Part shown: positions 3,645 to 10,861 of the stretch, piece by piece | How positions within the stretch are numbered: the first letter of the stretch is position 1 | How the letters are laid out: every line of letters begins with the position of its first letter | Source: Minisyncoccota bacterium | Lineage (GTDB): Bacteria; Patescibacteriota; Minisyncoccia; Phycocordibacterales; UBA1550 | Direction: 5' to 3' | Assembly: GCA_041660105.1 (NCBI GenBank) | Contig: JBAZWZ010000002.1 | Coordinates: 57,964-121,963, forward strand | DNA length: 64,000 nt | Position numbers and translations under genes: made by a program | The notes under the pieces: generated by a model | Told to the model about the DNA's origin: nothing | Seen by the model: the letters and a program-made list of their open reading frames with translations, nothing else | Database searches by the model: none

Positions 3645-3724
3645 TTCTATTTGACGGCGATAGCCCACAATGCTAGGCTTCAAAGAGGTAAGAACATTTC
3701 AATAACTAACGAGGGAGGTGTGTG

Positions 3725-4335
3725 ATGAAGGAACCTAAACGGATGAAAGAGTTGTTCCCCGCAAAGAACCCCGCAAAAGTACGACTCTATGGGGAATTTA
3801 ATGATGAGCTCGAGGAGAGTTTTCACAAGCAACTGAAGGCTAGTTCTGCAAAAGAGGAGCCAGACGGTCTTATGCTTCTTATTGATTCTCAGGGGGGGAA
3901 GCACGAGTTCTTTGGAGTATCGTCAACACACTTCAGAGGCTAGATTTGCCATGCATGGCTGTCGCAGAAAATGAAGCGTATTCTTGCGCTGCACAACTTC
4001 TGCTCTGGTGCCAGTACCGAGTTGCTGTGCCATTCGCAAATTTTATTTTTCACAATGCGAGTTACCCAATAAAAGGGGTAGACATACTTAGTGACGATGT
4101 CTTGTCAGTTATTGTCGAGAATCATCGCGCCCAAGAAAGAGCACTGCTTAAACAGTTTACACAAGCAACTGGACAGCCTCTGCGTCTTGCACGTGCTGTA
4201 TATTCCTCGGAGACACCGATGATTGCCACTCGCGCACTCGAGCTTGGTATCGTTCATGAAATAACCGAAAAGAGTTTCGCTATTGATGAGGATGACTGCG
4301 GTCTCGTCCTTGTCCCTGAAACCCCCGCCAAGTAA
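3725..4335 (+). pseudogene. ClpP-like serine peptidase (S14 fold) interrupted by a -1 frameshift inside a G7 run (3892-3898)
   Basis: Frame 2 reads ...VRLYGEFNDELEESFHKQLKASSAKEEPDGLMLLIDSQGG and then hits a stop after 15 more codons. Frame 1 continues EARVLWSIVNTLQRLDLPCMAVAENEAYSCAAQLLL...FIFHNA, which aligns residue for residue with ClpP ...[42 protein letters not shown]...MIHQP. The Ser and His positions are conserved. A G8 run would restore the frame. SD GGAGG sits 7 nt before the ATG at 3725. Confidence 0.6.
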
Positions 4336-4356
4336 GGCGGGGGTTTTTCTTTTTTA
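4322..4356 (+). terminator. rho-independent terminator CCCCCGCC-aagtaa-GGCGGGGG plus T-run
   Basis: The hairpin overlaps the ClpP-like stop codon and is followed by TTTTTCTTTTTT. Confidence 0.6.
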
Positions 4357-4372
4357 TGGTAATATAAAAATA

Positions 4373-6268
4373 ATGTGTGGCATTGTTGCAATCATCACGA
4401 GTAGAAAACGAAATCTCGTCCCTGAGATTGTTTCGTCGCTCAAAAATCTTGAATACCGTGGCTACGACAGCTCGGGTATTGCCATTCTTGACCAAGGAAA
4501 GATCAAGCGTGTTCGCCGTGTTGGTGCGCCGAGTGATGTTTTTCCGCCTGATGAAATCACAAATGAACTCGCTGTCAGCGATTTAGGATTCTCTCTTGCT
4601 CTCGGACACAACCGCTGGGCGACACACGGGAAGCCCTCACTTGGAAACGCTCACCCGCATTTTGATTGTGCTGGTGAAATCGCTGTGGTTCACAATGGAA
4701 CTATCCTCAATCACGAAACCTTAAAACAAGAGCTCGTGAAGCTCGGACACACTTTTACTTCGACGACCGATACGGAGGTCGTCCCGCATATGATAGAGCA
4801 GAAAATGAAAGAGGGCTTATCTCTTAAAGATGCCTTTCTTGACACCGCAGCGCTTCTCGAGGGGAGCTTTGGACTTGCTGTCATCTCTACAAAAGAGCCA
4901 GGAAAACTTTTTATCGTTAAGCGCGGAAGTCCACTGCTCTTTGGCATTTTGAAAAACACCATCATCGCTGCGTCGAGCTCAAATGCAATTCTTTCATACA
5001 CCAACACATTCATTCCGCTTACCGATTGCGAATATGCTGAGTTTGCTATTGAGGGCGATGAGGTGACCTATCGCATCGGCACCACCTTCAACAAGAACCA
5101 GACCATCAACAAACCAGTGGAAACAATTACCGACCACTCACTCGCTGATATTTCAAAAGGTGGCTACGACTCATTTATGAAAAAAGAAATCCACGCACAG
5201 CCTTCTGTTTTTCGTACGACCATTCTCGGACGCTACGACGAGAAAACAGGAGACGCTGTCTTGGGTGGACTCATTGACCACGAAGACACGTTGAGGAGCG
5301 CGAAAGCAATCCTCACTGTTGCGTGTGGCACCGCACACAACGCATCCCTCGTTGGCGGAGCGCTCATCGAGACACTTGCGGGTATCCCCGTGAGAAGCGA
5401 AATTGCGTCGGAATTTCGCTATAAGAAAGTTCCTCTCGACCCAAAAGACACGATAATCCTTGCCACAAGTCAGTCAGGCGAAACAGCAGACACCCTCGAG
5501 TCAATCAAGGAGGCGAAGAGAAAAGGGTATAAAACATTTGGTATCGTAAACGTCGTCGGCAGCGCCATAGCCGAAGAAGTCGACGCGGGAGTATACGCGC
5601 GCGCTGGTGTCGAAGTGGGGGTCGCCTCCACAAAAGCTTTCACGGCGCAACTCGCAATATTTTATTTGCTCGCGATAAAATTTGCACGCGAGCGGGGGAT
5701 GACGGCCCAAGAAGGTCGCGCGCTCATCGCAGAGCTTGAGCAAATCCCTGAGCTTATGATGAAGACTCTTGCTGACACAGAAAAGAGAGTGATTGCCCTC
5801 ACAGAGCGCTACACGGCAAAAAATATTCGTGTGATTAATTTCCTCGGGCGTGGTATCAATGTGCACGTAGCCACCGAAGCAGCGCTCAAGTTTAAGGAAC
5901 TCACATACCTCGAAGCAGGAAGCTATCCGCTTGGCGAGCTCAAGCATGGGCCTATCGCTGTCATTGATGAAAATTCCGTCTCGGTGATCCTTATGCCGCA
6001 CGACGAACTCTTTGCGCAAAACAAAAATTCGCTTGAGCAAATCCTCTCCAAGAATGGCAATGTCATCGTCATCACTGACGAACTCGGCGCGCAAAATCTC
6101 AAAGAACAAAATGTCGACATCATCACCATCCCCACACTCAAGCATTCACTCATGTACCCACTTCTTGAGATTCTTCCCCTTCAACTTTTCGCCTATCACT
6201 ACGCAGTCGCTCTCGGAAACAATGTCGACAAACCCCGTAACCTTGCAAAATCAGTGACGGTGGAGTAA
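4373..6268 (+). CDS. glmS: glutamine--fructose-6-phosphate aminotransferase
   Basis: MCGIVAI... gives the N-terminal nucleophile Cys. SIS domains are present and the C-terminus reads DKPRNLAKSVTVE. Confidence 0.9.
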   Translation: MCGIVAIITSRKRNLVPEIVSSLKNLEYRGYDSSGIAILDQGKIKRVRRVGAPSDVFPPDEITNELAVSDLGFSLALGHNRWATHGKPSLGNAHPHFDCAGEIAVVHNGTILNHETLKQELVKLGHTFTSTTDTEVVPHMIEQKMKEGLSLKDAFLDTAALLEGSFGLAVISTKEPGKLFIVKRGSPLLFGILKNTIIAASSSNAILSYTNTFIPLTDCEYAEFAIEGDEVTYRIGTTFNKNQTINKPVETITDHSLADISKGGYDSFMKKEIHAQPSVFRTTILGRYDEKTGDAVLGGLIDHEDTLRSAKAILTVACGTAHNASLVGGALIETLAGIPVRSEIASEFRYKKVPLDPKDTIILATSQSGETADTLESIKEAKRKGYKTFGIVNVVGSAIAEEVDAGVYARAGVEVGVASTKAFTAQLAIFYLLAIKFARERGMTAQEGRALIAELEQIPELMMKTLADTEKRVIALTERYTAKNIRVINFLGRGINVHVATEAALKFKELTYLEAGSYPLGELKHGPIAVIDENSVSVILMPHDELFAQNKNSLEQILSKNGNVIVITDELGAQNLKEQNVDIITIPTLKHSLMYPLLEILPLQLFAYHYAVALGNNVDKPRNLAKSVTVE

Positions 6269-6316
6269 AACTAGGCACAATCTACTATTCTGCGCATGTG
6301 CTAAAATAGGGGAATT

Positions 6317-7147
6317 ATGGCGAAACAGCCCAAACTTAGTCCTAGGCAGATAATGTTCTTCCAGGCTCAAATTTGGGCCTTTTACGGGGTATCAGGCAGG
6401 AGGAATCTACCTTGGCGAAAGACAAAAAACCCTTACAAAATAATGGTTTCTGAAGTAATGCTTCAGCAGACGCAGGTCTCGCGCGTACTCGTAAAATATC
6501 CTGAATTTTTAAAGGCTTTTCCGACTGTTGAGACACTCGCAAAAGCACCTTTATCTCAAGTCCTCAAAGTCTGGCAGGGGATGGGGTACAACCGTCGCGC
6601 GCTCGCGCTCAAGCGTATGGCGGAAAAAATAGTTGCTGATTTCAATGGAAAAGTTCCACGAGCGCGACTCGACCTCGAATCACTTCCTGGAGTCGGCCCA
6701 TACACCGCAGGCGCCGTGCGTGCGTTTGCATTTAACGAGCCAGAAATATTTATTGAGACAAATATCCGTAGAATTTTCATTCATCATTTTTTCATAGACA
6801 AAGAGGGAATTAGCGATCGAGAAATTTATCCACTCGTCGAAACTACCCTCGACACAAACAATCCGCGCGAGTGGTACTGGGCACTTATGGACTACGGATC
6901 ACACTTACCAAAGATTGCGCGCAAAAATTCAAATACACAAAGCAAACACTATGTAAGGCAAAGCAAGTTTAAGGGTTCTCTCCGTGAGCTCCGCGGGAAA
7001 ATAATACGCGCGCTTGGAGACAAGCCGCAAACTCTTGTATCACTCAAGCGCGCATGCAACAATGACACAAGGATAAAAGAGGCACTGGACGCACTCACAA
7101 AAGATGGCCTCATCACCTATGAAAAAAGAAAATACCAACTTGCCTAA
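6317..7147 (+). CDS. HhH-GPD DNA glycosylase, MutY-like, lacking the Fe-S cluster loop
   Basis: LPWRKTKNPYKIMVSEVMLQQTQV and GVGPYTAGAV match the MutY catalytic domain. No Cys4 cluster and no NUDIX-like C-terminal domain follow. The MutY catalytic Asp position reads E (IETNI). Confidence 0.7.
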   Translation: MAKQPKLSPRQIMFFQAQIWAFYGVSGRRNLPWRKTKNPYKIMVSEVMLQQTQVSRVLVKYPEFLKAFPTVETLAKAPLSQVLKVWQGMGYNRRALALKRMAEKIVADFNGKVPRARLDLESLPGVGPYTAGAVRAFAFNEPEIFIETNIRRIFIHHFFIDKEGISDREIYPLVETTLDTNNPREWYWALMDYGSHLPKIARKNSNTQSKHYVRQSKFKGSLRELRGKIIRALGDKPQTLVSLKRACNNDTRIKEALDALTKDGLITYEKRKYQLA

Positions 7148-8958: not shown

Positions 8959-9035
8959 ACCAACGCCTTGGTGGTGGGTATTGATACTGAAGGGGGAAAG
9001 GGCTCTATTCTATATGTATGCGGGATATACGTACG

Positions 9036-9120
9036 TCGCACAATATATCTTTTGCGACGTGCTCAGAAATCCTGTAAGGATTACTTGAGTACGTCGCAAA
9101 AGAGCCTCCATTGTGCGACC
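9036..9120. repeat. cluster of GTCGCA(A/C)AA / TT(T/G)TGCGAC inverted repeats forming at least two hairpins
   Basis: ACGTCGCACAA-tatatc-TTTTGCGACGT and GTCGCAAAAG-agcctccat-TGTGCGAC, plus a central AATCCtgtaAGGATT hairpin. This is the 3' intergenic region of convergent genes. Confidence 0.4.
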
Positions 9121-9121
9121 T

Positions 9122-9180
9122 CGAATCAGCTGATTCTGAATTAGCAAATTCACGTCTCGGACGAAATCTTGGACATAAAC
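9122..9180 (+). repeat. copy 1 of the palindromic element (CGAATCAGCTGATTC ... CTTGGACATAAAC)
   Basis: Contains the 14-bp perfect palindrome GAATCAGCTGATTC and the shared TTGGACATAAAC module. Confidence 0.6.
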
Positions 9181-9223
9181 ATAAAAATGTGCGCACAATC
9201 CAGGTTTGCGACAAAACTAAAAA

Positions 9224-9466
9224 TTATTTTCCGAGAATTTGTGCTGTGGTAGTTGCTGTTGATGTAGCCGTTGAACTCGCTGACTCGAGTAAATCAATTG
9301 CGCTACCCGTCAGAAATTTAAATAATGGTAAAATATAATTTATCCAAGCTTCACTCAAAATTGCTATAATCTGTTTTACTATCGGCATTTGAGCCACCGC
9401 ATGCAAATCTATATTAAAATATGCGAGCCCCGCAATGATAATAACTGCCAAAAACACGATCTGCAT
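9224..9466 (-). CDS. small membrane protein (about 80 aa)
   Basis: MQIVFLAVIIIAGLAYF... has a TM helix, and AGGAGGG lies just upstream of the ATG at 9466. The gene is flanked by copies 1 and 2 of the palindromic element. The alternative longer start (MKRK at about 9562) would translate through copy 2. Confidence 0.45.
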   Translation of the reverse strand: MQIVFLAVIIIAGLAYFNIDLHAVAQMPIVKQIIAILSEAWINYILPLFKFLTGSAIDLLESASSTATSTATTTAQILGK

Positions 9467-9518
9467 AAACCCTCCTGAGTTTTTCGAAGAAAAATTCTGG
9501 CGGGTAAATCCGCGGTTA

Positions 9519-9550
9519 CGAATCAGCTGATTCGTGTCTTGGACATAAAC
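9519..9550 (+). repeat. copy 2 of the palindromic element (CGAATCAGCTGATTCG-tg-TCTTGGACATAAAC)
   Basis: 16-bp perfect palindrome followed directly by the TTGGACATAAAC module. A TAGTAAT -10-like box sits 16 nt downstream. Confidence 0.6.
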
Positions 9551-9586
9551 TTTTCTTTTCATAGTAATTATATTGTACATTGTTTT

Positions 9587-10861
9587 TTACATATAATCCA
9601 TCGGATCCAGATACGCGTTGGTTGCCGCTACGGGCATTGTGTAGGTACGGCCACCGCAAGACTTACTTGGGAGATTCTTTACTTCAACCGCTGCTGCTGC
9701 AAAAACCGTCAGGTGCAAGTGCGGACCTGTCGAATAGCCGGTGTTGCCACTGTAGCCAATAAGGTCGCTTGTGTTAACGGTCTGCCCTTTTGATACTTTT
9801 ATAAGCGAAAAGTGCGCATAGAGGCTCGCAAGTCCGTTGTTGTGCTTGATGAGCACCCATTTACCATACGAAGCACCCGCGCACGTGAGGTCTGTGTCCC
9901 CTGTGCCGATTACCGTCCCTGAGAGCATCGCCTTCACAGGAGTTCCTACCGATGCTCGAAAGTCTGTACCATTGTGCGTCCCTGATGCATACAAACGCCC
10001 TGATGAGCTCGTCTTGCCAAACTGTTGTGTGATAGTAAGCGGATTAAGTGGCGCTGCAAAAACTTTTGTACCACGTGGCGGAATCGACGTTGGATCAAGA
10101 ATGAATTTCAATGTTGATTCATACTCACGAAGTTCTTTCTCGAGCGCGTCCTTGAGCGCGAGCTTGTCTTTCAAAATCTTTTGGTACTGCGTCTCTTGAT
10201 TTTTTGTTTGCGTAAGAAGCTTCGTTGTTTGCTTTTTGTTATCAAGCGTGATTTTCTTTTGATCACTGAGGTCGCTCTGGAGGGTCAACAACTTCCCTTT
10301 TACTGTTTGTTGTTTTTTGTTTTTGTTTTCCAGATCCGCCTTCAATGACTTGATGAGCTCTACGTTTTCATTTATCGATAAGCTGAATTCACCGAGAGAC
10401 TCGATATCATTCCAAAAATCAGAAAAACTTTTGTCAGACAGGGCAACTTGGACCAAGGATAGCTTATCTCCTTCGTTTATTACCCGCAATGCTTCTTTGA
10501 GCGCTGCTATACGCCCGCTTATTTCATCTTCCTTATAGGAAATTTCTGAGCTTAACTGTCGGATAGTTAAATTTGAAGTATCAACCTTCGCTTGAGTTAC
10601 TTTTATCTGCGCTTCGAGTGCTTTCTGTGTCGTTGCGAGTGCGGCAACAGCATTGCTCAGCGTTTTTTTCTTTGTTGCAAGAGTGGTGAGGTCTCCTTGA
10701 TACTGTTTTATTTCATCTTCAAGTTTTTGTATCGCAGTATTTTGGGCGGTGATTTTTTGTTGTAACTCGTCGACTGTTTGCGCACTCGTAAGTCCACCCG
10801 TCATAAATACAATAACGCCGAGCGACAATAATATTCCAAGTTGAAAAAAATATTTTCGCAT
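9587..10861 (-). CDS. M23-family peptidase with long N-terminal coiled coil (EnvC/LytM-like)
   Basis: N-terminal signal/TM, a Q/K/L-rich coiled coil, and C-terminal GTHNGTDF...YAHFS...GNTGYSTGPHLHL M23 motifs. Confidence 0.8.
   Translation of the reverse strand: MRKYFFQLGILLSLGVIVFMTGGLTSAQTVDELQQKITAQNTAIQKLEDEIKQYQGDLTTLATKKKTLSNAVAALATTQKALEAQIKVTQAKVDTSNLTIRQLSSEISYKEDEISGRIAALKEALRVINEGDKLSLVQVALSDKSFSDFWNDIESLGEFSLSINENVELIKSLKADLENKNKKQQTVKGKLLTLQSDLSDQKKITLDNKKQTTKLLTQTKNQETQYQKILKDKLALKDALEKELREYESTLKFILDPTSIPPRGTKVFAAPLNPLTITQQFGKTSSSGRLYASGTHNGTDFRASVGTPVKAMLSGTVIGTGDTDLTCAGASYGKWVLIKHNNGLASLYAHFSLIKVSKGQTVNTSDLIGYSGNTGYSTGPHLHLTVFAAAAVEVKNLPSKSCGGRTYTMPVAATNAYLDPMDYM

Follow-up and report, generated by a model that had tools for sequence, protein, structure and literature searches.

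The locus described here lies on the plus strand of a 64,000-nt stretch of DNA, which we call the window; it forms part of a 129-kb contig in the MAG of an uncultured groundwater bacterium (Candidatus Paceibacterota). Two consecutive reading frames, both named 'hypothetical protein' at NCBI, are parts of a single ClpP-like gene that is interrupted at a run of seven G residues (Table 1). The N-terminal part of the ClpP-like sequence, residues 1–58 of ORF1, reads MKEPKRMKELFPAKNPAKVRLYGEFNDELEESFHKQLKASSAKEEPDGLMLLIDSQGG and ends in ...LMLLIDSQGG. Beyond the run ORF1 continues out of frame, and the DNA of this tail encodes the conserved helix EARVLWSIVNTLQRLD when translated in the −1 frame. That frame stays open between the G run and the TAA codon and reads EARVLWSIVNTLQRLDLPCMAVAENEAYSCAAQLL...FIFHN...; it is annotated separately as MFA5997089.1 (WC791_01215) with a start at TTG 3946 or ATG 3955. 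A preliminary description made from the DNA letters had proposed that a −1 shift at G7 divides a ClpP-like gene, and the position, the frames and both ORFs agree with that proposal. Retranslation also bore out its statement that one extra G in the run gives a single 203-aa ORF; an extra A before the run (CAA for CAG) does so equally. The tryptic peptide across the junction would be EEPDGLMLLIDSQGGEAR in the full-length product and ...DSQGGK in the truncated one. In the closest relative (contig L012, see below) the stretch matching the Shine-Dalgarno-like sequence of the window is GAGAGGTG. A promoter scan found no sigma-70 consensus promoter. At the 3′ end, a stem-plus-T element similar in kind to the terminator of the window also follows the orthologs in contigs L002, L003 and L009.

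Table 1. Features of the split ClpP-like gene; positions are those of the window
Feature	Positions	Strand	Details
Shine-Dalgarno-like sequence GAGGGAGG	3711–3718	+	read from sequence; 6 nt 5′ of the ATG
ORF1, 72 aa, MFA5997088.1 / WC791_01210	3725–3943	+	ATG 3725, TAG 3941–3943
G7 homopolymer (GGGGGGG), site of the frame break	3892–3898	+	in-frame form CAG GGG GGG GAA (G8) or CAA GGG GGG GAA
Downstream ClpP frame, residues 59–203	3898–4335	+	TAA 4333–4335
Out-of-frame tail of ORF1, 14 residues KHEFFGVSSTHFRG, then stop	3899–3943	+	
Weak hairpin	3906–3941	+	begins 7 nt past the G run; −14.3 kcal/mol
Catalytic Ser87 codon, TCT	3982–3984	+	family-invariant
Catalytic His110 codon, CAC	4051–4053	+	family-invariant
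Glu163 codon, GAG	4210–4212	+	aligned with the catalytic Asp of ClpP
Intrinsic terminator	4318–4357	+	12-bp stem with 8 G–C pairs and a T tract; overlaps the stop codon

The joined protein is recognised by the Pfam profile PF00574 (CLP_protease) with 48.1 bits at a cutoff of 20.2, covering positions 17–181 of 182, and its separate halves both score below that cutoff (15.5 bits for ORF1 and 19.3 bits for the downstream half). Alignment of the joined translation to an S14 peptidase profile had been suggested beforehand, and the score above the cutoff gives a positive answer. In the AlphaFold2 model of the joined sequence pLDDT is 82.9 (92–94 across the junction) and pTM 0.77. All 50 matches listed by Foldseek against the PDB are ClpP, with TM 0.7–0.79 and rmsd of about 2.5 Å. 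According to the model, the joined protein would thus adopt a complete ClpP fold. The ClpP chains in the PDB are colinear with it across the junction and identify Ser87 as the nucleophile and His110 as the base, as expected from the earlier placement of the two residues downstream of the break; Glu163 falls at the catalytic Asp. Because of the joined profile score, the colinearity with PDB chains and the intact homologs that align without a gap at the junction, the ClpP match of the joined protein is far beyond chance.

Both Ser87 and His110 are invariant in the 12 sequences of the family alignment. At the position of the triad acid, Asp is found in nine of the 11 other aligned sequences, Asn in P0003 (from L003), and P0029 is not readable unambiguously; Glu occupies it in the window protein and its Hainich relative, where a Ser-His-Glu triad may still be functional. 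The N-terminal axial loop of ClpP, which gates the pore and contacts ClpX/ClpA, has no counterpart in the joined protein: alignments with PDB chains begin at ClpP residue ~30 and query residue 19, and the 18 residues that precede are unrelated. The preliminary characterisation of the protein as a short atypical ClpP is therefore correct regarding the missing axial loop and has to be amended regarding the triad acid, since the position is occupied by Glu163 and, in the family, usually by Asp.

The scores of the joined protein are far under the NCBIfam cutoffs for ClpP equivalogs (17.8 vs 308.6 for TIGR00493 and 31 vs 249 for PRK00277). Given these scores and the lack of the axial loop, the family is a divergent S14 clade and not a group of canonical clpP orthologs. 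It is similar to ClpP (MEROPS S14, PF00574) in the near full-length profile match, the fold, the DSxGG motif, Ser87 and His110. It is different from ClpP in that the axial loop is absent and the family-specific N-terminal motif LFPAKNPA stands where the loop would be; in addition, the window protein has Glu for the catalytic Asp and its gene is frameshifted. No second ClpP-like gene and no ClpX or ClpA was found within the 64-kb window.

There are about eleven intact single-ORF homologs (P0002–P0005, P0010, P0157–P0161 and P0162), which are 190–205 aa long, 43–58% identical to the joined protein and align with no gap across the junction. Searching 1.84 billion cluster representatives with a profile gave only six proteins set apart by a steep drop, below which generic ClpP-like proteins follow at ~1e-16, and a word-indexed search of 5.8 billion clusters added a few further members. 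All members with a named source organism come from Paceibacteria or Yonathbacteria MAGs. Around the junction the family consensus is LLIDS-x-GG-(E/D/S)-x-x-x-L, and the invariant residues include Y22, G23, S55, G57, G58, S87, C96, R99 and H110. The codons of the motif are CAA GGG GGC GAA in L003, ACC GGA GGA AGC in L004 and ATA GGT GGA GAA in L009, with no long G run in any of these intact relatives. Since about eleven homologs are intact, gap-free at the junction and devoid of a long G run, the ancestral state was one ORF. What these searches define is a tiny ClpP-like clade of about a dozen sequences among 1.8–5.8 billion clustered proteins. The conserved LFPAKNPA N-terminus in place of the axial loop points to a peptidase that would act independently of chaperones, in bacteria whose proteostasis machinery is minimal. 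For the L003 ortholog (5965–6582) identity to the protein of the window is just 49.5%, compared to 91% for the flanking exonuclease and 95% for GlmS; either this gene has evolved faster in that lineage or the allele has been replaced.

Phage head-maturation proteases (NCBIfam NF045542; PHROG 2976 and 53) likewise combine a short N-terminus with a ClpP core, and the joined protein covers NF045542 from end to end (positions 2–165 of 165, E = 7e-06). They differ from it in that their scores are weaker than those for cellular ClpP and in that the gene block of the window contains no phage genes. A prophage head protease was rejected on the grounds that the PHROG and NCBIfam phage scores are below the ClpP scores and that the synteny is chromosomal. 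The chromosomal block consists of L27, a PHP phosphoesterase, an RNase T-like exonuclease, the ClpP-like gene and glmS. It is also present in a Paceibacterota MAG (L003) and a Logan contig (L009), and in a looser form in a Yonathbacteria MAG (L004). Relatives carry a gene for a secreted DUF5666-like protein of ~290 aa between the ClpP-like gene and glmS (L003 6620–7492, L009 3224–4093, L002 869–1018). In the window only 37 nt (4336–4372) separate the stop codon of the ClpP-like gene from the glmS start, with no DUF5666-like gene between them, and tblastn found no copy of it anywhere in the 64 kb. This looks like a clean deletion at the frameshift locus in the lineage of the window.

The same G7 is found in three other short-read contigs (L001, L007 and L008), so that the run length is supported by the assembled consensus sequence of four contigs from at least two datasets. 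A 3,019-nt Logan contig of SRR18595301 and a MEGAHIT-style k141 contig of ENA ERZ27249449 are both 100% identical to the window and have G7. The 1,145-nt contig of IMG 3300014208 also has G7 and differs by one SNP, CGT to GGT (R to G), in ORF2. IMG 3300014208 is sample GW1, taken from a landfill groundwater well in Southern Ontario, and was sequenced by Illumina HiSeq 2x150 (PMC9723747).

In the window the G7 is the only G/C run of at least 7 nt; there are five G/C runs of 6 nt, and A/T runs of at least 7 nt number 29. GGG is the rarest Gly codon (18.5% in 54 window genes), and the pair GGG-GGG occurs in 0 of the 100 other Gly-Gly pairs in the 54 window ORFs of at least 120 aa. By this codon usage the G tract is unusual for the genome, and it is a natural slippage hot spot. 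Scarcity of G/C homopolymers and absence of GGG-GGG pairs are consistent with selection against G tracts. The in-frame ancestor of the window lineage had either G8 or CAA followed by G7. Slippage in the G run as the origin of the lesion is something we infer, since loss of an A from an ancestral CAA gives the identical sequence.

Information about the age of the lesion comes from relatives. The closest one, L012, is a 606-nt contig from Hainich groundwater with ~80% nucleotide identity and 1x coverage. Over aligned ClpP-like codons the amino acid identity between L012 and the window is 65% upstream of the run and 91% downstream of it. In the downstream frame, the 66 codons compared give a dN/dS of 0.038 from 25 synonymous and 6 nonsynonymous substitutions (dS about 1.05), and omega upstream of the run is 0.13. 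In comparison with a second Hainich contig, L002, dN/dS over the last 75 codons is 0.055. The 145 codons downstream of the shift contain no second stop and no indel, and the family alignment shows that the window protein has retained all family-invariant residues. In other words, the ORF is disrupted with respect to intact homologs, and the signs of neutral decay are absent (omega 0.038–0.055 downstream, no extra lesions). These comparisons show that the downstream frame has been under purifying selection for nearly all of the divergence between the window and L012, and the break is recent. The frameshift is either very young or somehow bypassed. Since there are no further lesions and the downstream omega is low, any pseudogene state must be very young.

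The tract of L012 itself reads TCG CCA GGGGGGGG AAG, i.e. G8 where G7 would be in frame. L012 and the window are thus out of frame in opposite directions, the former being one base too long and the latter one base too short. At face value the opposite phases hint at a hypermutable or phase-variable tract. We discount this signal heavily because L012 has 1x coverage and a same-project contig, L013, contains a cluster of errors, and further because the four contigs of the window species all carry G7 and no in-frame allele of the window/Hainich sub-lineage was found among about 15 billion proteins. In L013 (ENA Hainich H52, 2x coverage, positions 210–400) an in-frame TGA replaces the codon for the invariant Gly of PDG, and E-to-D and S-to-A changes lie within the same 12 codons; apart from these it is identical to P0162, an intact protein found in other samples. 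Its changes are most likely a cluster of read errors and serve as a warning on low-coverage comparator contigs. On the same grounds (error cluster, 2x coverage, intact P0162) a recoding of UGA as Gly in L013 was dismissed, and the idea of repeated independent pseudogenisation in the Hainich relatives is weakened. L002 (ENA Hainich H43, 1x coverage, positions 359–832) encodes a 157-aa protein in which a membrane-anchored DUF3048-like N-terminus is followed by the last ~75 ClpP-like residues. This fusion is probably an assembly chimera of a 1x contig, joined at a shared stretch coding for VIIENH; a real rearrangement is possible.

With somewhat better than even confidence, we interpret the split gene as a very young loss-of-function allele, i.e. 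a pseudogene, that is fixed in the sampled groundwater population of this Candidatus Paceibacterota species. One base has been lost in or just before the G tract (CAG GGG GGG GAA to CAG GGG GGG AA), which splits the single-ORF gene of an accessory 203-aa serine peptidase of the ClpP family that was functional until recently. Translation from ATG 3725 would end at TAG 3943, giving a 72-aa fragment. Function would be lost because the fragment does not contain the helix of residues 59–74 and the entire catalytic half. Concerning the position of the lesion in a homopolymer, replication slippage makes indels of this kind and could also revert them. A protein made in two pieces, by reinitiation at TTG 3946 located 2 nt past the ORF1 stop codon, was rejected: residues 59–74, a confidently modelled core helix in the AlphaFold2 structure, would be in neither piece. 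It is important to note that continued expression would leave the same trace of strong purifying selection in the downstream frame, and that the opposite wrong phase of L012, read at 1x coverage, hints at a switching tract; both points count against a young loss. A minority G8 subpopulation may also exist beneath the consensus sequences. The ClpP-like gene looks dispensable, given that the family is tiny and patchy, the adjoining DUF5666-like gene has also been lost and an intact allele of the sub-lineage is missing among about 15 billion proteins.

It is very improbable that the genome truly has G8 and an intact gene that was misassembled or misread. Homopolymers are classic sites of indel miscalls and all the evidence for G7 is at the consensus level, but an assembly error was rejected because the run recurs in four contigs that different assemblers built from short reads of at least two datasets, one of them Illumina HiSeq 2x150 data with a distinguishing SNP. 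Furthermore, the rest of the 64 kb consists of dense long ORFs and, as far as a greedy ORF map can tell, has no other obvious split gene; a dedicated scan for homopolymer-linked split genes was too noisy for use. We also consider it improbable that a full-length protein is made by recoding, either through a −1 ribosomal slip on G_GGG_GGG or through RNA polymerase slippage that adds a G. The site is a formal X_XXY_YYZ heptamer in the zero frame, the slipped product ...SQGGEARV... corresponds to the family consensus, a hairpin starts 7 nt past the site, where a stimulatory structure would be sought at 5–9 nt, and the downstream frame is conserved. In motif and hairpin the site is comparable to −1 sites of the dnaX/IS3 type. 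Unlike these, it has no upstream SD stimulator, its structure is not significant (z = −0.89 against shuffles, with 35 of 200 reaching an equal or lower folding energy), the orthologs do not share the site, and its motif belongs to a weak class: in E. coli the lowest −1 frameshifting reported is that of G_GG.G_GG.U (0.018% without a stimulator), and the list of efficient motifs contains no G_GG.G_GG.N heptamer (PMC4066793). A conserved programmed frameshift was rejected given that the orthologs (about eleven) are intact without the run, the hairpin is not significant and Rfam has no match at the frameshift site. L012, moreover, would need the opposite shift. With respect to the transcriptional variant, there is a precedent in reduced endosymbiont genomes, where frameshifts in poly(A)/poly(T) tracts are conserved, the genes show no decay, and transcriptional slippage rescues them (PMC3017870). 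The affected Blochmannia and Buchnera genes are like the window gene in having a single homopolymer indel in an otherwise undegraded gene of a reduced genome, but their tracts are poly(A)/poly(T) of about 9–11 nt and not G7 (PMC3017870). Transcriptome-wide, 100% of homopolymer insertions were in A/T runs, and G/C runs were judged not to be slippage-prone in E. coli or Buchnera, which disfavours rescue by transcriptional slippage (PMC5574713).

Another way to reconcile a broken frame with an undecayed gene is phase variation, in which replication slippage would switch the tract between G7 and G8, most cells in the sampled populations would be OFF, and the gene would stay intact through selection in those that are ON. 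We regard this, the main rival to a young loss of function, as rather unlikely for the locus. It would account for a homopolymer in the 5′ third of the ORF, for the low omega downstream (0.04–0.055) in a gene free of secondary lesions, and for the out-of-frame length in L012. The tract is also common to the window and this ~80% identical relative in spite of the rarity of GGG and of GGG-GGG pairs; however, at dS of about 1–1.5 the chance retention of both GGG codons has a probability of roughly 0.15 (a rough estimate), so that significance of the conservation is undemonstrable. That no in-frame allele of the sub-lineage is known fits populations that are mostly OFF, and the same fact weighs on the other side, as an ON allele has been found nowhere in the databases. 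No length polymorphism is seen within the species (G7 in 4 of 4 contigs), and the L012 length comes from a 1x contig of a project whose low-coverage contigs carry errors. Phase-variable contingency genes with poly-G or poly-C tracts occur in Neisseria, Haemophilus and Campylobacter. The window gene resembles them in having an early G homopolymer of out-of-frame length and a relative with the other wrong length; it differs in the absence of within-species variation and of an ON allele, in the short tract and in the gene class. Seven G's are short for a classical contingency tract, and a cytoplasmic-type protease, being neither a surface nor a restriction-modification gene, is an atypical contingency gene; both features count against phase variation. 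It is doubtful that this is a true contingency locus at which a CPR bacterium switches a stand-alone ClpP-like peptidase without an axial loop by slippage in a conserved GGG-GGG-G tract, and at which two diverged lineages have been caught in opposite OFF phases with the protein still under strong purifying selection. To our knowledge, no phase-variable gene has been described in Candidatus Paceibacterota or the CPR radiation, and heterogeneity of the tract length, if true, would offer an uncommon opportunity to study phase variation or unstable homopolymers in the CPR. Regarding the options offered in the preliminary description, a sequencing error and a programmed slippery site are both unlikely, a phase-variable site is possible, and a fresh pseudogene fits best.

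Read as a young loss of function, the lesion is a single indel event of a well-known kind and otherwise a routine snapshot of gene loss in a reduced genome. For annotation, WC791_01210 and WC791_01215 should be flagged as one frameshifted ClpP-family gene.

Some further observations were made elsewhere in the window. Despite its many ribosomal-protein and other housekeeping genes, the entire 64-kb window gave no tRNA gene with ARAGORN and no Rfam family at the gathering threshold. A segment that reads GAATCAGCTGATTC...TCTTGGACATAAAC occurs twice, at 9122–9180 and 9514–9550. One copy is at the 5′ end of a minus-strand ORF (9224–9580) and the other is in the apparently non-coding region 8960–9220; Rfam and ARAGORN gave nothing at this repeated segment. 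Close to it, 37 nt of the window (9025–9061) are 97% identical to positions 10669–10705 of the Yonathbacteria MAG L004, compared to only 65–72% identity in nearby coding sequence.
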